Assembly (NCBI GenBank): GCA_965261395.1
Contig: OZ253462.1
Coordinates: 3,104,001 to 3,168,000, forward strand
Direction: 5' to 3'
DNA: 64,000 nt
Origin: Candidatus Latescibacterota bacterium
GTDB taxonomy: Bacteria > Latescibacterota > UBA2968 > UBA8231
The notes beneath the pieces are model-generated. The model saw only the letters and a program-made list of their open reading frames with translations, ran no database searches and was not told where the DNA came from. Positions 937 to 56,033 of this stretch are shown here, piece after piece (the stretch's first letter is position 1; the number at the start of each line of letters is the position of its first letter). Made by a program: the position numbers and the translations under genes.

Positions 937-2772
937 GTGTATCACACCTTTCACATCGCAAGGCTTAATGGGAAGAATATGACGAGGAAGTACGCAATAG
1001 GATGCAAATTTTATGCCAACATCTTCTTGGTCGGCGCGTTGCTGCTGGCCGCCTGCGGTCCGGAAGAACCTTCTGAACCGGCTCCGACGCCCGAGTACAC
1101 TAAAGCGCCCACCGCTGATTACGCGGTGGGGCACGGACGGCAAAAAGCCCCTGCGGTGCGCTTTGTCGATGTGACGCGAGAGGCCGGTCTCGAATTCAGG
1201 CACGAGACCGGTGCGCGCGGCGACAAGTGGATGCCGGAAACTATGGGCAGCGGCTGCGCGCTTTTTGATTACGATGGCGACGGTTGGCTGGACGTGCTCT
1301 TGGTCAACAGCGAAGGCTGGCAGGGCGAAAAGGCCCCCGGCAAGCTCTACCGCAATCTCGGCAACGGCACCTTTGCCGACGCAACGCAACGCGCTGGCCT
1401 AGACTTTTCTGTCTATGGCATGGGCGCGACGATTGCCGACTACGACGCCGATGGCGATCCGGATATTTACCTGACGACCTTGGGGCCTAATCTGCTCTTG
1501 CGCAACGACGCGGGCCGCTTTGTCGATGTGGCGCGGGAAGCGGGCGTGGCGGGCGCGGTCTGGCGCGACGATGCGGGCAATGAGAATCCCGAATGGTCCA
1601 CGGGCGCGGCCTGGGTCGATGTGGATGGCGACGGCTGGCTGGATCTGTTGGTCACCAACTACGTGCGCTGGTCGCCCAGCACTGACATATACACCACGCA
1701 AGACGGCAAGGAAAAATCCTATGCCACGCCACAGCAGTACCCCGGCTCGACGCCCCGGCTCTACCGCAATCTGGGCGCGGGCCGCTTCCGGGAGATAACC
1801 GAAGAAGCCGGCCTGCTGTTGCCCGAGGGCAAATCTATGGGCGTGGCCATGACCGACTTTGAAGACGACGGCCGCATCGACTTGGTCGTCACCAACGACA
1901 CCCAGCCCAATTTCCTGTTGCAAAACTTAGGTGGGGGTCGCTTTGCGGAGCGGGGGCTCGCCGCGGGCATTGGCTACGATGAGAGCGGGCGAGCGCGAGC
2001 GGGGATGGGCGTAGATATTGCATCGGTCGCCAACGACGGCGTGCTCTCCATCGCCATTGGCAACTTCAGTCGCGAGGCGCTCTCGCTCTACCGCCAAGCT
2101 GGCAGCGAGGTTTTCGTCGATGGCGCAGGTAGGGCTAGACTGATGCAGGCGACGCTGCGGCCGCTGACCTTTGGGCTGCGCTTTTTCGACTACGATCTCG
2201 ACGGCTATCAGGACCTGATCTTGGCCAATGGGCACATCGAGCCGGAGATCAACTCGGTGCAGAAGGAGATCGAGTACCAGCAGGCACCGCAGTTGTTTTG
2301 GAACGACGGCGACGGGCGGATGGTCGAGGTGTCAGAGCAGACCGGTGGGCTGTTCCTCAAGCCGCTGGTGGCGCGGGGATTGGCTGTCGGCGATATCGAC
2401 GCCGATGGCGACTTGGACGTATTGCTGACGACCAATGGCGGCCCGGCTTATCTATTGCGCAACGAGGGGCCGACCGGCCGTGCGGTGGCGCTCGACCTGA
2501 CGGGTAAGGCACCCAACCGAGACGCCATCGGCGCGAAGGTGACGGCGCAGGTGGGGGAACAGAAGCAGGTGTTCATGGTGCGCACGGGGTCTTCCTATCT
2601 GAGCCACAGCCCGACGACGCTAACCGTTGGCTTGGGCGCGGCTGAGCAGATCGACCGCTTGGAGATTCGCTGGCCGGATGGGACGGTAGAAACCCTCGAA
2701 CAGCTCGCGGCCGGGGCGCACTACGAAATCGCGCAGGGTGAGGGGATTGTGGGGAAGAGGGCCTTTCAATAG
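937..2772 (+). CDS. CRTAC1-family FG-GAP repeat / ASPIC-UnbV lipoprotein
   Basis: Repeated DxDxDGxxD (FG-GAP) motifs; C-terminal GSSYLSHS...IRWPDG (UnbV/ASPIC); lipobox LLAAC. The true start may be the ATG at 979. Confidence 0.88.
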   Translation: MYHTFHIARLNGKNMTRKYAIGCKFYANIFLVGALLLAACGPEEPSEPAPTPEYTKAPTADYAVGHGRQKAPAVRFVDVTREAGLEFRHETGARGDKWMPETMGSGCALFDYDGDGWLDVLLVNSEGWQGEKAPGKLYRNLGNGTFADATQRAGLDFSVYGMGATIADYDADGDPDIYLTTLGPNLLLRNDAGRFVDVAREAGVAGAVWRDDAGNENPEWSTGAAWVDVDGDGWLDLLVTNYVRWSPSTDIYTTQDGKEKSYATPQQYPGSTPRLYRNLGAGRFREITEEAGLLLPEGKSMGVAMTDFEDDGRIDLVVTNDTQPNFLLQNLGGGRFAERGLAAGIGYDESGRARAGMGVDIASVANDGVLSIAIGNFSREALSLYRQAGSEVFVDGAGRARLMQATLRPLTFGLRFFDYDLDGYQDLILANGHIEPEINSVQKEIEYQQAPQLFWNDGDGRMVEVSEQTGGLFLKPLVARGLAVGDIDADGDLDVLLTTNGGPAYLLRNEGPTGRAVALDLTGKAPNRDAIGAKVTAQVGEQKQVFMVRTGSSYLSHSPTTLTVGLGAAEQIDRLEIRWPDGTVETLEQLAAGAHYEIAQGEGIVGKRAFQ

Positions 2773-21761: not shown

Positions 21762-23003
21762 TTATTCCACTTCCACTAACACTTGGCGTTGGGCTGGGTC
21801 AAAGGCGACTAAAGTAGCTCCGTCCTCTAACAGGAAAGTGTCGCTTTTGAAAGAGGCACGGCTCGAAGCTCGCGTCAATGGGCGGCCATCTACCCGCACT
21901 GAGCGCACCTGCCCATCTGTCAGGCGCAGGGTCAAATCAGGGGTCTGCACCGGCAGGTCGAGGCGGATGGTGTTGCCCTCTACTGAAATCTCGGCCATTG
22001 CGCGGGTGCAGGCATAGGTGGTGATCTGGCTACAGGTGCGCCATTGGGTGCGCTCTCCTCTGGGATCGCGCTCGGCGAGGCGGCTCACCACCTTCTTGAA
22101 TGCCTTAAAGCCGCGCCGGTCCTCATCGTGTAGCCCATAAAACCCCTGCCAATGGCTGATGAGCACAGCCGGCTCGCCCGCGTCAATGAGGGCCGGTAGG
22201 CGGCCGCTTTCTAGGTCGGGAGCGATGTACTTGTCGGGATCGACCTCGCCATACCCGGTCCAACTGCCAGTCCAGTCGCCGGTGGAGGCGATGATTTCGC
22301 CAGTGGCTTGGCCGGTCTGGCGATCGGGGTACCACACGGGGGTATCCACCGTGGCCTCCCTAGAGATCCGCTGAAAAAAGTAGGGCACGGGGTTGCCCGT
22401 GACTTGGCGCACGGCCTCGCCAGCACAGTGGGCGTAAAAGGGCAAGGTGCGGCCGCCGAAACCGCCCGGTGAGGTTACCCCTTGGGGCGTCAAGCCCACA
22501 GCGACTAAAATGCGGCATGCTTGGGCGATGTACTCGGTGACCAATTCTTCTTGATCTTCGGGCAGCGTGGCCCACTCGTATTGCTCCCATATTCTGGAGG
22601 GGAGCGGCTGCAAGGTTTTGGGATCTAGCACGAACGTATGGGTGAGCATCTCGGGCGTGATGTCGAAGGCAGGGACGATTACCTCGCGGCACATGGCCAG
22701 CCATTCGTCTTGCTGGGCTTTGCTGAAGAGGGGCAGCCCCTCGTCGATGCGCCCTAGAGCCGCCGGACAGGGCACCACCGAGAACTTGCCCCGGACGCCG
22801 CTTGTTAGGCACCACTCGGCAAATTCACGGGTAAAGGACGTAGGATGGGCCACCGGCACATCCTCCCAGCGCTGGGGACGGCCCTCGGCGATAGTGCGAT
22901 CGCGGAGGAAGAAATAGTTGAGGTTGACCAGCACCGTGGAATCGTCGAAGATGATGGACAAGGGCACTCGATCGAGGGCGTGACGGGCGATTTCAGCGAA
23001 CAG
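21762..23003 (-). CDS. hypothetical protein, possible polysaccharide deacetylase-like barrel
   Basis: VPLSIIFDDS, PEMLTH, SPGGFG, SHWQ; SD AAGGAGGT precedes a CTG at 23003 (see findings). Confidence 0.5.
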   Translation of the reverse strand: MFAEIARHALDRVPLSIIFDDSTVLVNLNYFFLRDRTIAEGRPQRWEDVPVAHPTSFTREFAEWCLTSGVRGKFSVVPCPAALGRIDEGLPLFSKAQQDEWLAMCREVIVPAFDITPEMLTHTFVLDPKTLQPLPSRIWEQYEWATLPEDQEELVTEYIAQACRILVAVGLTPQGVTSPGGFGGRTLPFYAHCAGEAVRQVTGNPVPYFFQRISREATVDTPVWYPDRQTGQATGEIIASTGDWTGSWTGYGEVDPDKYIAPDLESGRLPALIDAGEPAVLISHWQGFYGLHDEDRRGFKAFKKVVSRLAERDPRGERTQWRTCSQITTYACTRAMAEISVEGNTIRLDLPVQTPDLTLRLTDGQVRSVRVDGRPLTRASSRASFKSDTFLLEDGATLVAFDPAQRQVLVEVE

Positions 23004-23172
23004 GGGACACCTCCTTTGTTGTAACAATCTGCCGTGGCTGAGCGGCTTTTGGCGTCTAATATACTATGCTCTCTTGCCGTTACAAAAACTACACCCAATG
23101 GGGCAAATCCGCCGCGCACCGGCTGGGGTTGACTCCTGATCTGCTAGGTGCGGCCTGTGGGGGATACGACCC

Positions 23173-25860
23173 GTGACTAGTCGCCCGCGCGCCGCCGTGC
23201 GCCTCGCCGGTGCGGCTCTGCTGCTCAGTGGCTTGGCCCTCAATCCGCTGGCCCCCGCGCATTTTTCTTTAGGGCATCCGCTTAGCACCGAGAGTATCAT
23301 CGCCCTCCAGATCGCCTTGATTTTTGGCGGCGGTTGGCTCGTTTGGCGATGTCCCCGGCTGCCGCTAGTTCCCATTGTACTCGTTGCCCTCGCCTTTGGC
23401 GCCCTGGCCATTCTCGGGGGATACGGTACGGTCCGCTCACTGCAAAAGGTGCAGGAACGCAACCGGCTTTTGGCGACTATTGACCGCAGCGAAGAGGTAC
23501 AGCAGCACCTGAGCGGCGAGGCCCTGCCGCTCCTCGTTTTGGGGATCTACCAAGGACAACTGCCCGCGCCGCCGGCTCGCGCGCTTTTTGCCGCCACGGT
23601 TGCGGTCGCGGATGTAGAGCAGACCGCAGAGGCGACCGAAGTTGTCCCGGCGTTGGGCATTAAGCGTCAGCACTGGCGGATTGCTTCTATCGAACAGTTC
23701 CGGGGCTCCGACCTCCAGCTATGGGGGTCGCTTTTTGCCGCGCTGCATTCCTGCGACTATGCGGCCTTCCACATTGAGACCGGGCATTTCCTCGACGCGG
23801 AGGCGACACTCTACCAAGCCCGCTTGCGCTTCAACGCTTCGGCGCAGACAAAAGACGGGGAGCGAGCGCAAATTCGGGCTTGGCTGACGCTCGACTGGCA
23901 GCGGCAGGAAGATGCCTCTTGGCGGATTCAGCGCTGGGAGACCGAATCGCTGGAGATGCTCACGCGGGCGCACGCGCTGTTTGCCGAAGTCCTCGACGGG
24001 GCGCTCCCGCGCGACGAGGACCGCACCCGGGCTAGGTTTTCGCGCCACGCCGAACTGGTGCGTCAGTCGTTTTTCGACTCCGCGTTCACCGCACCGCATC
24101 GCTATTTCACCCGCCAGGCCTTTGACCGCCATCCCGGCATCAGCGTCGTGGATATTGACGCCGATGGGTACGACGACCTGTACATTGCCGGGCGCCAAGG
24201 TAGGAACATGCTGTTGCACAATGGCGGCGACGGCACGTTCACTGAGCGCGCGGCCCAATACGGCCTCGATGTGGAGCACCACACCGCGGCTGCGCTCTTC
24301 GCCGACTTTGACAACGACGGCGACCCGGATGTCTTCCTCGGTCGCACGCTCGCGTCTAGCCTCTACTTGGTCAACGAGGACGGTCGCTTTGCCCCCCGCG
24401 ACTTAGGCGATGGCGTCTTGCCGTTCCTCGTGGCCTCGATCTCAGCGGCCGATTACGACGGCGACGGCCTGCTCGACGTGTACTTCTCCACGTATGCCGC
24501 GCGGATGTTGCTCGAAGCGGTCGCCACCGCGTCTGGCGCAAGCGCGCTGTTGGCCGACTTCCTGTCTGCGGACCACGCTCGCACGCTCTACGACCTGAGC
24601 CGCGACCGCATTGGCCACCTCATCCACGACGCGCCCGGGCCGCCCAACGTCCTACTGCGCAACCTCGGCAACGGCCGCTTTGCACCCACTGCCGCGGTGT
24701 GGCGCAATACCTTACAGGCGACTTGGGCCGACTACGACCGCGACGGCGACCCGGATCTCTACCTCGCCAACGACTTTGCCGCCAACAACTTGCTCCGCAA
24801 TGACGGCGGTGCCCTCGTCGATGTCACCGCCGCGAGCGGGGTTGCGGATCCGGGCTTTGGCATGGGTGCGAGCTGGGCCGATTACGACGGAGATGGCCGC
24901 CAAGACCTGTACGTGACCAACATGCACAGCAGCGCCGGTCGCCGCATCACGGCAGCCGCTGGGCGGGCGGGCGCGGCGTTTGCCCCTTTGGCCCGGGGGA
25001 ACTCCCTCCTGAGGAACGGCAGCAAGGGCTTCACTCGCGTTGCGGATTCGCCGGTGGAGGACGGCGGCTGGGGTTGGGGCGGCCAGTTTTTGGACTTTGA
25101 CAACGACGGCGACCTCGACATCTACGCTCTGAGTGGCTACTACACCCCGCCGTCCGCAGTCGCTCTTCCCGAAGATACCTGAAGCCTGTTTTGGCGCACG
25201 GTCGTGCGTCATGGCCGGACGGATGGGGCGTACAACGTAGGAGCGCGGCTCAACGCTGGGGCCTCACTCAGCGGAGACCAGCGCAACCGCCTCTTTCTCA
25301 ATGTAGAAGGCCGCGATTTTATTGAACTGTCGGGCTTGTCGGCGGTGGATTCGCCGGCGGATGGCCGCGCCTTCGCCACCTTGGACTTCGACCGCGACGG
25401 CCGCATTGATTTGGCCGTCGTCAATGCCAATGAGCCGCTCTGCGAGCTGTTTGCCAACCGCAGCAAGGCGGGGCACATCCTCGCGTTGCGGTTTGTGGGG
25501 GGTAATAAGCACGATGAGATCTCGCGTGAATGGAGTACACGCGATGGGTATGGCGTACAAGTGGAAGTGGATGTCGGCGGGAGGACGCTGTTGCGCGAGC
25601 ATCGGGCTGGCGAGGGCTTCTCGGCCCAGAACAGCGCGACCTTGATTGTCGGCTTAGGCGCACATCAACGAGCGGATGCCGTGCGCGTGCGCTGGCCTTC
25701 GGGCCGCACCCAGCACACAACCGACGTGGAGGCCGGTTCGCTGTTGACCGCGTACGAAAACTCTCGGCACTCGCCTACGGGGGCGGCGTTTGTAACCGCG
25801 CCATACTACGTGCCCCCAGATAGCAGCCGACCGCGGCTCCCCGCGCGCCGGCAATTTTAA
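23173..25860 (+). CDS. CRTAC1/FG-GAP + ASPIC-UnbV protein with in-frame UGA at codon 670 (candidate selenoprotein, 895 aa)
   Basis: ORFs 23173-25182 and 25183-25860 are in the same frame and together give the complete architecture seen in the paralogues at 937 and 54432; SECIS-like hairpin follows the UGA. Confidence 0.72.
25183..25215 (+). promoter_or_regulatory. putative bacterial SECIS element
   Basis: Stem TGGCGCAC (25192-25199) / GTGCGTCA (25204-25211), 8 bp with one G-U pair; loop GGTC starts 17 nt after the UGA. Confidence 0.68.
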
Positions 25861-25884: not shown

Positions 25885-26610
25885 ATGGTTGCTAATGTTG
25901 CTCATCGGGGTGCGTCGGGAAACTATCCCGAAAATACGTTGATCGCCTTTCAGAAGGCGTTAGAAATTGGCGTTGATGAGATTGAGCTAGATCTCCACAT
26001 GACAAAGGATGACCATCTAATTGTCATGCACGACTCAACCGTAGACCGAACGACAGATGGCACGGGCGCGATTGCAAAACTCACACTAACTGAGATCAAA
26101 GCCCTTGACGCCGGAGGAGTGTTTGGTGAACAGTTTCGGGGTGAGCGTGTGCCAACATGGGAGGAAGCATTAGACCTCGTACAAGGGAAGGTTAGACTCA
26201 ATGTCCACCTCAAAGAAGGGGGCAATCCAGACGGTCGCTATGAACGCAAGGTTGCACAGGCATTGCGCGAGTTTCAGATGGTAGAGGCTTCTATTTTGGC
26301 ATGCAGCGATAAAAGCGTTGGGATTTTTGCCGAGATTGACTCGCGGATTGAGTGCCGGATTTTTCGCGCGAATCGCACACCAGAGGAATATATCCGAAAA
26401 TCGGCAGAGATGGAGCTGCGGACGATGCAGCCGGGACGGGACATCACGACTCGGGAGTTTGTCCAAAAGGCACATGCGGCAGGACGAGTTGTGCACGTCT
26501 TCTATGCGGATACCCCTGAAGATATGCGAGCTTACATCGAGATCGGCGTTGATGGGATTTTGACAAACTATCCGGAACGACTGCAAGCGATCCTCACAGA
26601 AATTGAGTAG
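25885..26610 (+). CDS. glycerophosphodiester phosphodiesterase family
   Basis: AHRGAS..PENT, IELD, HD..VDRTT, GVDGILTNYP; AGGAGGT SD. Confidence 0.9.
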   Translation: MVANVAHRGASGNYPENTLIAFQKALEIGVDEIELDLHMTKDDHLIVMHDSTVDRTTDGTGAIAKLTLTEIKALDAGGVFGEQFRGERVPTWEEALDLVQGKVRLNVHLKEGGNPDGRYERKVAQALREFQMVEASILACSDKSVGIFAEIDSRIECRIFRANRTPEEYIRKSAEMELRTMQPGRDITTREFVQKAHAAGRVVHVFYADTPEDMRAYIEIGVDGILTNYPERLQAILTEIE

Positions 26611-54431: not shown

Positions 54432-56033
54432 TTAAGGCTCGTGTACGGTCAGGAGCTGGTCGGCGGCGATGTCTTGCAAGCGCTGCACAGTGCCGCTGGG
54501 CCAGCGGATTTCCACCTCATCGACGCGGGTGCGGTCTCCCAACCCGAAAAAGGGGCGCAGCGCGCTTTGGCACATGTAGCTCGATCCGGCGCGCACCACG
54601 TCCCAACGCACCCAGTCGCCCGCGGCAACGCGGACCTCGGCTCCGACGAAGTCCCCAACCAACCGCAAGCTCAAATAGTGCTGGGCATTGCCGCCGTCAT
54701 TGCGCAAGAGCGCGGCGGGTTGATTGTTGTTGGCTACTGTGATGTCGAGGTCGCCGTCGTTGTCGTAATCGCCCATAGCCGCGCCGCGACTCACATGCTG
54801 CAACAGCAGGCCCGGCCCCACCTGATTGCTCACGTCGGCGAAGTGCCCTTGGCCCTCGTTGCGGAAAAGTTGGTTTTGCTGCTCGTACGTCACGGCGTCG
54901 AACAGGTGGATGTTGTCGTCGAGGTGGCCGTTGGCCACAAACAAGTCGCGGTCGCCGTCGTTGTCGTAGTCGATGAAGAGGGTGCCCCAGGCGAGGAACT
55001 GCAAGCTGGGAACCCCTAGCCCGGACTGAAAGGTCACGTCGGCAAAAAACCCGTTGCCGAGGTTGCGGTACAGGCTGTTGGTTTCCCACTGGTAGTTGGT
55101 GACGAAGAAGTCAAACCGGCCGTCGCCGTCGTAGTCGCCCACGTCAACCCCCATGCCAGCCAACGGCTTGCCGGCGTCGTTGTAGGCCACCCCGGCCAAC
55201 GCGCCTATCTCGGCAAAGCGGCCCCCCTCGTTGCGGTAGAGCAAATTGGGGGTGCGGTCGCCTGCTGCGTACAAGTCGAGATCGCCGTCTGAATCGTAGT
55301 CGATGAAAAAGGCCCCTAATTCCTTGGCGGCGTCCGGCAGCAACCCGGCCTCCTCGGTGACATCGGCAAAGGTGGCGTCGCCTTCATTGCGATAAAAGAC
55401 GTCGCGCTGCGGCCCGAAGGCTTCCGGCCCGCAGTACACTGCAATTCCGCCGGAGCGGATGCAGGGCTCGTGTATTTCGGGACGAAACTTGGCGTAATTG
55501 GCCACAAAGAAGTCCAAGTCGCCGTCTAAATCGTAGTCGGCAAAGGCTGCGCCCGTACTCATCGCCGGATTGACTAGCGCTGGCCCGGCCACGCCGGCTT
55601 GGTCGGTTGCATCAGTGAACCGGCCCGTGCCCTCGTTGCGGTAGAGGGTATTGGGGCCGTACGCGGTGATGTACAAGTCCAAGTCGCCGTCTGAATCGTA
55701 GTCGGCTGCGGCACAGCCCAACCCGTAGCCCGGATCAGCCACACCAGCCTCGTTGGTTGCATCGGTGAATTGGCCGGCGCTCGCGTTGCGGTAGAGCGCA
55801 CTCGGGCCGGCGCTGTTGACGAAGTACAGGTCGAGCCACCCGTCGCCATCGTAGTCGAAAAAGGCCGCGCCCGAGCCCATGGTCTCCATTGGATACTTTT
55901 GCCCTTCGGCCCCGTTCTGGTGGCGAAAAGCGATTCCGGACTCGGCCGCCACCTCGACAAACTGCACCTCGGCGCGGCCTGGCGCAGCCCATAGGCACGC
56001 CAAGGCGGCTCCTAAGAGGGCGCGCTGCGTCAC
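54432..56033 (-). CDS. CRTAC1-family FG-GAP / ASPIC-UnbV protein
   Basis: Signal peptide; ETMGSG, repeated DYDxDGD, GSSYMCQS, IRWPSG. Confidence 0.88.
   Translation of the reverse strand: MTQRALLGAALACLWAAPGRAEVQFVEVAAESGIAFRHQNGAEGQKYPMETMGSGAAFFDYDGDGWLDLYFVNSAGPSALYRNASAGQFTDATNEAGVADPGYGLGCAAADYDSDGDLDLYITAYGPNTLYRNEGTGRFTDATDQAGVAGPALVNPAMSTGAAFADYDLDGDLDFFVANYAKFRPEIHEPCIRSGGIAVYCGPEAFGPQRDVFYRNEGDATFADVTEEAGLLPDAAKELGAFFIDYDSDGDLDLYAAGDRTPNLLYRNEGGRFAEIGALAGVAYNDAGKPLAGMGVDVGDYDGDGRFDFFVTNYQWETNSLYRNLGNGFFADVTFQSGLGVPSLQFLAWGTLFIDYDNDGDRDLFVANGHLDDNIHLFDAVTYEQQNQLFRNEGQGHFADVSNQVGPGLLLQHVSRGAAMGDYDNDGDLDITVANNNQPAALLRNDGGNAQHYLSLRLVGDFVGAEVRVAAGDWVRWDVVRAGSSYMCQSALRPFFGLGDRTRVDEVEIRWPSGTVQRLQDIAADQLLTVHEP

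Follow-up and report, generated by a model that had tools for sequence, protein, structure and literature searches.

Bacterial genes with a selenocysteine insertion sequence (SECIS) of the fdhF type share an in-frame UGA that is immediately followed by a hairpin within the coding region. In fdhF of E. coli K-12, this UGA is codon 140, and the apex of the hairpin reads GCA-GGUC-UGC, with a loop start 18 nt downstream of the UGA. The CRTAC1/ASPIC-UnbV proteins are characterized by an FG-GAP beta-propeller with a C-terminal UnbV_ASPIC domain, and we know of no molecular activity assigned to human CRTAC1. Here, we describe a gene in which features of both systems are found together. It lies at positions 23173-25860 of the plus strand of a 64,000-nt stretch of a Candidatus Latescibacterota genome (GenBank assembly GCA_965261395.1, contig OZ253462.1, positions 3,104,001 to 3,168,000), which is referred to as the window throughout. 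The gene is predicted to encode one membrane-anchored protein of 895 residues with the CRTAC1/ASPIC-UnbV architecture, an FG-GAP propeller followed by UnbV, in which UGA codon 670 is decoded as selenocysteine (Sec) by means of a hairpin. The probability of this reading can be put at roughly 85%.

Like fdhF and the selD gene of its own genome, the window gene has the in-frame UGA, the immediate coding-region hairpin, and the GGUC apical loop, and the genome contains the full selABCD set. It differs in that the host protein is unrelated; furthermore, the loop in selD starts 42 nt after the UGA, and other clades of the family described here often have five-nucleotide loops (GGUCG or AGUUG). With the CRTAC1 proteins, the window protein shares the FG-GAP propeller, the C-terminal UnbV_ASPIC domain, a sequence match of 5e-16, and the fold of 9etn. 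Unlike them, it has an additional N-terminal membrane anchor and a beta-rich domain, and the motif D-x-U-S-x-F-W-R has no counterpart in mouse CRTAC1 in the sole alignment that covers this region, which is weak (6.7 bits). No EGF-type domain was detected in the window protein with Pfam.

Two further groups of proteins should be considered. The thioredoxin-fold selenoproteins with UxxC or CxxU motifs (thioredoxin, peroxiredoxin-like, DsbA-like, and the UGC-containing TlpA family) resemble the window protein in having Sec at the N-terminus of a helix and in a likely extracytoplasmic location, and a TlpA-like CxxC domain is present in the same chain of 37 of its relatives. In the window protein, however, Sec is located in a propeller loop (EDT-U-SLFW) outside any UxxC or CxxU motif, the fused TlpA-like domains of the relatives hold CxxC and not Sec, and the window protein itself has no thioredoxin-type match in Pfam or NCBIfam. 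In PilB-type fusions, a TlpA-like thioredoxin domain is joined to methionine sulfoxide reductase (Msr) domains. By analogy, a periplasmic catalytic Cys or Sec that is recycled by a fused TlpA-like domain may be common to these fusions and to the family described here, which has no sequence or fold relation to the Msr domains.

Probable selenocysteine at codon 670

An open reading frame (ORF) of 669 amino acids starts at GTG 23173 and ends at TGA 25180-25182. Past this TGA, the frame remains open until TAA 25858-25860, which gives 895 residues if the UGA is decoded as codon 670. A first-pass annotation, made from the sequence alone, had placed the ORF and its continuation at the same positions. 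It had also regarded TGA as an ordinary stop elsewhere in the window, where TGA terminates 18 of the 47 open frames of at least 300 codons, and had described two paralogues in the window as uninterrupted; matches without an internal stop were indeed located at about 1333-2718 (plus strand) and 54432-55868 (minus strand). Among 21 orthologues, the proportions of variable sites at codon positions 1, 2, and 3 are 0.39, 0.33, and 0.89 for codons 671-895, compared with 0.37, 0.32, and 0.89 for codons 311-669. The equal variability on both sides means that the region 3' of the TGA behaves like protein-coding DNA whose frame is unbroken. The extent of the whole gene, 895 codons, is based on the sequence and its frame, on this codon-position variability, and on the prediction of a single chain by AlphaFold2 (AF2).

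The TGA itself is conserved. A six-frame search of 40 relatives returned orthologues at 66-91% identity, and TGA stands at the Sec column, within the motif ED[TS]-U-SLFWRTVVR, in each of the 22 same-genus orthologues with coverage of the site. Two divergent clades (about 30-35% identity) also have TGA at this column, one with the motif KDT-U-SLFWRHVL (four loci, same genus as the window gene) and one with the motif PDG-U-[AS]C[IV]WQAVV (two loci, different family). A wider scan was performed with the junction alignment A3 as the query and one genome per bacterial species. It yielded at least 600 stretches; 96 were relatives, and 80 loci were kept. Among the matches listed, a stop codon occupies the Sec column of D-x-*-S-x-[FL]-W-R-x-V-V in 43 of the 80 loci, and it is TGA in all 43 and TAA or TAG in none. 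These distant loci are labelled Planctomycetota (13), Verrucomicrobiota (12), Acidobacteriota (12, including Ca. Multivorans), Proteobacteria (2), Bacteroidota (1), and Gemmatimonadota (1), and two are unlabelled. The rest of the 80 loci have Cys (L086, L103) or Glu (L066, L084) at the column, or lack the motif or do not cover the column (33 loci). Taken together, the 22 same-genus orthologues, the 4 and 2 loci of the divergent clades, and the 43 distant loci make at least 71 TGA loci, and the recoded gene is present in at least six named phyla. In the clade-2 genes of two species-representative genomes, L050 (G016) and L051 (G014), the 120 nt around the Sec codon are identical, and both genes encode 935 amino acids; recent transfer or cross-binning could account for this identity.

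The UGA is followed by a SECIS-like hairpin, UGGCGCAC-GGUC-GUGCGUCA, at 25192-25211 on the plus strand, with its loop at 25200-25203. The hairpin begins 10 nt past the TGA, its loop starts 17 nt past the UGA, as the first-pass annotation had noted when it likened the hairpin to the fdhF apex at a near-identical distance, and it is the minimum free energy (MFE) structure in both 91-nt and 48-nt contexts. Folding, frozen third codon positions, enrichment, and covariation all point to it. In codons 675-678 (CGC ACG GTC GTG), the third positions are invariant in 21 of 21 orthologues, as opposed to about 89% variable third positions elsewhere, and variation in the stem is limited to CGT/CGC at codon 679 and ACG/GCG at codon 676, which keep the pairing as G-C or G.U. 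Across the TGA loci, a stem of at least 6 bp is found in 65 of 71, and a spacing of exactly 17 nt from the UGA to the loop start in 57 of 71. A register-free scan was applied to these loci with in-frame control positions drawn from the same loci. A stem of at least 6 bp with a loop 15-20 nt downstream was detected at 62 of the 71 sites, compared with 8.1% of 38,104 control positions; when GU in the first three loop bases was added, the figures became 61 of 71 and 0.81%. The commonest loops are GGUC (31), GGUCG (12), AGUUG (5), CGUGC (3), and CGUGUC (3). The hairpins fall into 42 distinct sequences, whose arms compensate each other, for example, in GCGCAC/GUGCGC, GCGUCA/UGACGC, GCGACA/UGUCGC, and GGAGGCG/CGCCUC. 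Conservation of the hairpin, which had been proposed as a check, is thus seen both in its position and in the compensatory changes of its stem. The predicted folds of five non-TGA homologues (L055, L066, L084, L086, and L103) lack this hairpin at the equivalent position.

Hairpins of this kind are rare in the genome. Counting both strands, the 6.55 Mb contain no more than 284 hairpins that have a GGTC tetraloop and a stem of at least 6 bp, about 8e-4 per 37-nt window. A genome-wide scan for TGA followed by a GGUC hairpin gave 18 hits, all of which, except for this gene, looked like spurious frames. A covariance model (R1) recovered 59 Sec sites and one spurious hit on the minus strand (L095). 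No single consensus structure fits the ungapped MAFFT alignment A2, in which loop lengths vary by clade. The alignment derived with R1 (A5) was not used for pair counts because it placed long insertions in the class with five-nucleotide loops.

The genome, a single contig of 6.55 Mb, encodes the machinery that the first-pass annotation had proposed to look for. SelA was found with 478.6 bits, the wing domain of SelB with 61.3 bits in a 645-aa frame, SelD with 374.9 bits and one in-frame TGA, and tRNA-Sec with 70 bits; ARAGORN also reports a tRNA-SeC with the anticodon TCA. In selD, the TGA lies in the context VACGG-U-ASKLRP; downstream of it, CUGGCA-GGUC-UGCCAG forms a hairpin with an identical tetraloop and a loop start 42 nt after the UGA. 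This selD (G000:C1:167936-168859, in L007, G000:C1:166436-170359) is itself a selenoprotein gene. The distance between UGA and hairpin has a published range for bacterial SECIS elements (bSECIS), and a spacing of 42 nt is beyond the usual one. When genomes, of whatever completeness, were sampled across lineages via the loci, 9 of 10 TGA-form genomes gave a SelA match, compared with 1 of 5 non-TGA-form genomes.

All of this supports, in silico, the decoding of codon 670 as selenocysteine by the canonical bacterial route, which we regard as very probable. The hairpin at 25192-25211 would act as a SECIS recognised by the SelB-GTP-Sec-tRNA(Sec) complex, and with its GGUC loop at an fdhF-like spacing, it could plausibly be bound by SelB of E. 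coli as well. The selenoprotein interpretation of the first-pass annotation is therefore supported, and each of its proposed tests that was run came out in favour.

Several results must be set on the other side of the balance. As the 71 loci share ancestry, they amount to fewer independent observations than the counts suggest. The stability of the hairpin is not exceptional, with a z-score of +1.19 against dinucleotide shuffles of the 91-nt region. In a synonymous-recoding test, the hairpin was the MFE structure in all eight Sec loci tested, and it was more stable than the recodings in only two of the eight (p = 0.007 and 0.018). For clade 1, the p values were 0.16, 0.27, and 0.18; for clade 2, 0.007, 0.38, and 0.018; and for clade 3, 0.65 and 0.38. 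The pairing is largely dictated by the conserved peptide W-R-x-V-V-x. An Rfam scan of 25100-25320 with E-values up to 10 matched no family, and its sub-threshold hits were meaningless. SelA was not found in one of the ten TGA-form genomes (L058/G051), a 12.7-Mb metagenome-assembled genome (MAG) labelled Proteobacteria, the size of which points to a mixed or inflated bin rather than to a genuine exception. SelA is also present in 40 of 41 close relatives, irrespective of the presence of the gene, and this near-universality makes the co-occurrence within the class uninformative.

Architecture of the protein and position of Sec670

The N-terminal membrane anchor comprises residues ~5-88 (23185-23436, plus strand, as are all features of the gene) with three predicted hydrophobic helices, which AF2 places at residues 5-22, 39-58, and from 65 onward. 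From the positive residues in the translation, we infer an N-in, C-out topology. In the clade-2 homologue, the N-terminus is a hydrophobic stretch that was read as a signal peptide, and the anchor of the window protein together with the apparent signal peptides in other clades indicates that the bulk of the protein is probably located outside the cytoplasm. The anchor is followed by a beta-rich domain at residues ~139-272 (23587-23988), with AF2 strands at 139-265 and predicted local distance difference test (pLDDT) values of at least 94. This domain has no match in Pfam or NCBIfam, and it is common to the Verrucomicrobia homologues at about 40% identity.

The FG-GAP beta-propeller with DxDxDG calcium-type motifs occupies residues ~320-770 (24130-25482), as defined with Pfam and Foldseek. 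In the 895-residue protein, Pfam identifies FG-GAP_3 (PF13517) with 3.3e-39 in six stretches and FG-GAP (PF01839) with 8.7e-19 in one repeat, and the DxDxD columns of the propeller are invariant in alignment A1. UnbV_ASPIC (PF07593) lies at residues 792-859 (25546-25749; 2.7e-16, full profile 1-68). It is coded wholly 3' of the UGA and is reached by read-through only, in line with the earlier statement that read-through supplies this domain.

The structure of the protein was predicted with AF2 from an alignment of 40 sequences. The full chain was modelled as one, with a mean pLDDT of 87.2 and a predicted template modelling (pTM) score of 0.86. The best Foldseek match in the PDB is murine CRTAC1 (9etn_A; E = 4.8e-26, TM (target) 0.68, 605 columns), and the next matches, aldos-2-ulose dehydratase and integrin alpha propellers, are far weaker (~1e-7). 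Sec670 (UGA at 25180-25182), assigned from TGA at the equal alignment column of the loci, is in the DSSP assignment of the AF2 model the first residue of helix 670-680, in a block with pLDDT 85-87. The helix is part of an insertion of about 45 residues, which is preceded by a DxDxDG loop and then a strand. Within the second-to-last blade, this insertion connects strands 2 and 3. In integrin propellers, the corresponding loop between these strands lies on the upper, ligand-binding side, and by analogy with propellers of this type, the Sec670 loop should be on the corresponding face of the window protein.

The FG-GAP/UnbV family is greatly expanded in this genome (G000). The query matched 187 stretches, with dozens of ORFs of 540-1070 amino acids, two of which are in the window; none of these other members has a stop at the Sec column.

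Partner thiols and the candidate role of Sec670

In nearly all Sec forms, Sec is accompanied by a second thiol, which is provided in one of three ways. A small hidden Markov model of the domain detected a C-terminal TlpA/ResA-like domain in 37 of the 71 Sec forms. Its CxxC motif is readable in 35 of these 37; in the remaining two, it is offset in one and gapped in the other. The fused domain of clade 2 matches NCBIfam NF047696 (2e-16) and has the motif WATHCGPC. Among the 34 Sec forms without a fused domain, nine have UxC, 22 have Cys at column 757, and three have none of the three thiols, two of these being cut by a contig end. Cys757 (TGC, 25441-25443, plus strand), in the context PL-C-ELF, is the candidate resolving cysteine of the window protein and is confined to clade 1: in the column alignment of the loci, all 22 clade-1 loci have Cys at this position, and none of the 54 other aligned loci does, their residues being F, H, I, L, S, V, or Y. 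The fused CxxC domain, UxC, and Cys757 do not overlap among the 71 Sec forms. The first-pass annotation was right that the site has no CxxU motif, but a partner thiol is nearly always present elsewhere in the chain.

This pattern suggests an extracytoplasmic Se-S redox centre. In such a centre, the selenolate of Sec670 would serve as a redox-active nucleophile towards a substrate outside the cytoplasm. Its oxidation would lead to a selenenic acid or a selenenylsulfide, which would then be resolved by the second thiol, different in each clade and mutually exclusive: Cys757 in the clade of the window gene, UxC with a Cys two residues after Sec, or the CxxC of the fused C-terminal TlpA/ResA-like domain. 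TlpA-type domains draw electrons via the membrane DsbD/CcdA pathway, and by analogy, the fused TlpA-like domain would take electrons from it as well. Judged from the domain fusions and the complementary cysteines, a redox function of Sec670 is slightly favoured. More tentative, and somewhat short of an even chance, is the broader proposal that the CRTAC1-like FG-GAP/UnbV propellers of Planctomycetota, Verrucomicrobiota, Acidobacteriota, Gemmatimonadota, and others constitute a large, unrecognised family of extracytoplasmic selenoenzymes, with Sec on the propeller face, a catalytic Se-S centre, and a resolving thiol that was re-invented three times.

The homologues without Sec provide further information. 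Among 19 non-Sec homologues with the fused domain, CxxC is kept in only 6. In full-length Verrucomicrobia-type proteins (P0035, P0045, P0050, P0055, P0059, P0063, P0079, and similar ones), Glu or Asp replaces Sec, and the C-terminal CxxC is mostly lost (TTSPAWTT, TSSPAGTS), as if Sec and CxxC had decayed together. Cys occupies the Sec column in P0121 and, as TGC, in the paralogue L055, in addition to L086 and L103. Glu is found in the P0035-type Verrucomicrobia proteins, P0082, P0098, P0099, and P0117, Asp in P0094, P0113, and P0116, and Ser, Asn, and Thr elsewhere. These residues were read from the sequences; site-residue labels that had been assigned to the P-proteins with a regular expression were discarded, as the expression matched elsewhere in the proteins. 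Six of the homologues (P0094, P0099, P0110, P0113, P0115, and P0117) have a longer architecture of about 1,200-1,300 amino acids, in which an N-terminal domain, the FG-GAP propeller, and UnbV are combined with AhpC-TSA/Redoxin and many TPR repeats. Sec versions of this long architecture occur in Planctomycetota and Verrucomicrobiota, with frames open for at least 570 codons past the UGA (L087, L089, L090, and L096-L106).

The redox proposal has its own difficulties. At the Sec column of the non-Sec homologues, Glu and Asp are commoner than Cys, which is unusual for a redox Sec and means that this is not a classical Sec/Cys-only site. A column rich in Glu and Asp fits the role of a metal ligand or a general base too. 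The expectation that homologues would keep TGA or Cys thus held for TGA (at least 71 loci) and for some Cys, but not for Cys as the usual alternative. In addition, the non-Sec comparison proteins were 29 hand-picked from 120 listed and were not a random sample, and no thioredoxin-like or redox partner gene adjoins the selenoprotein gene.

An alternative role for a genuine Sec670 has to be weighed. Sec670 could be a ligand for a metal or metalloid, either alone or chelating together with the partner thiol, rather than a nucleophile of turnover redox chemistry. We consider this unlikely but not negligible, and the same holds for its likeness to Sec in formate dehydrogenase, in NiFeSe hydrogenase, or in the metal-handling selenoproteins with UxC or CxU. 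Homologues vary at the Sec column, with U, C, E, D, S, N, or T, and in the Mo/W-bisPGD (bis-pyranopterin guanine dinucleotide) enzymes, the metal-ligand position varies in a way that resembles this. Every sequence of the junction alignment A3 has Asp at position -2, and in A1 the conservation of this Asp is 90% or higher. The propeller holds DxDxDG calcium-type sites, and TlpA-type proteins act in copper-centre assembly. Furthermore, UxC and CxU motifs are listed for metal-handling selenoproteins in a 2026 catalogue (PMC13188914). The either/or distribution of thiols and the loss of CxxC in most non-Sec forms are, however, what a dithiol/selenol relay predicts, even if Se-S chelation is still compatible with them, and no metal-binding family was found in the window protein with Pfam or NCBIfam.

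A reading of the UGA by something other than Sec is far less probable. In that case, the hairpin would promote programmed read-through or the near-cognate insertion of Trp, Cys, or Arg. The computed results do not fix which residue enters, and the unremarkable stability of the hairpin would suit such a mechanism. On the other hand, the distant loci use TGA without exception, the GGUC or NGUN loop lies at a SelB-type distance as in selD and fdhF, the TGA forms track SelA across the sampled genomes, and some homologues have Cys at the column, all of which favour Sec.

That the TGA is a true terminator, with a 669-aa protein and a separately started C-terminal piece, or that it marks a pseudogene or a sequencing error, is the least credible explanation: public gene calls of close relatives (85-96% identity) all end there, at 661-723 amino acids, and a GTG is found 21 nt 3' of the TGA, but this GTG (25204) lies within the 3' arm of the stem with no Shine-Dalgarno sequence seen by eye, as the first-pass annotation had remarked, TGA and frame are conserved across six phyla, purifying selection is equal on both sides, termination would sever a propeller blade and the UnbV domain, and AF2 gives one compact chain.

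Neighbourhood, catalogues, and significance

Downstream of the selenoprotein gene, a gene for a glycerophosphodiester phosphodiesterase (GDPD; 25885-26610, plus strand, 1.6e-44) starts 25 nt past its TAA behind an AGGAGG, and the two genes may be co-transcribed. Upstream, a divergent ORF of 421 amino acids without a Pfam family (21762-23027, minus strand) is found beside the orthologue at 91-96% identity. Each of these two neighbours accompanies the orthologue in 15 loci, including the window's own, and they are conserved among close relatives only.

The family described here was sought in current catalogues of selenoproteins. NCBIfam release 20, which includes the NCBI selenoprotein models, matched neither the window protein nor clade 3 to any family. 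Table 1 of a 2026 review lists 119 prokaryotic selenoprotein families (PMC13188914), and in this table, there is no FG-GAP, VCBS, CRTAC1, or propeller entry. The family terms have 0 occurrences in the main texts of PMC13188914, PMC13326102 (BSepDB), PMC12013277 (deep-Sep), PMC2398784, and PMC9312934, the supplementary lists of which could still include the family, and the family was not met in the passages of PMC12013277 on nine new families. Full-text searches that combined selenoprotein or selenocysteine with FG-GAP, CRTAC1, ASPIC, or VCBS gave nothing relevant by title and abstract, and no CRTAC1/ASPIC-UnbV member described as a selenoprotein or enzyme was found in the full-text literature searches. 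This agrees with the earlier statement that no characterised selenoprotein of this family was known. A widespread family of Sec-containing CRTAC1-like propellers, therefore, appears to be uncatalogued.

The public gene calls for the close relatives, from sources labelled Gemmatimonadota MAGs, are named "VCBS repeat-containing protein". As gene calls are cut at the UGA, databases lack a protein that has its full set of domains and appears to be common in several abundant environmental phyla. The present result adds a selenoprotein family that is absent from NCBIfam and from the 119-family table of the 2026 catalogue (PMC13188914), and it places Sec in a beta-propeller, a fold with no other family in that table. 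The inferred selenium demand of these phyla rises accordingly. The functionally obscure CRTAC1/ASPIC-UnbV family is tied to thiol/selenol chemistry, and the fused CxxC, UxC, and distal Cys forms offer a natural three-way comparison of how an extracytoplasmic selenenylsulfide may be recycled. If these propellers are indeed selenoenzymes, they would be the first case of a selenoenzyme with a beta-propeller scaffold and would give a first biochemical clue to the family to which human CRTAC1 belongs.

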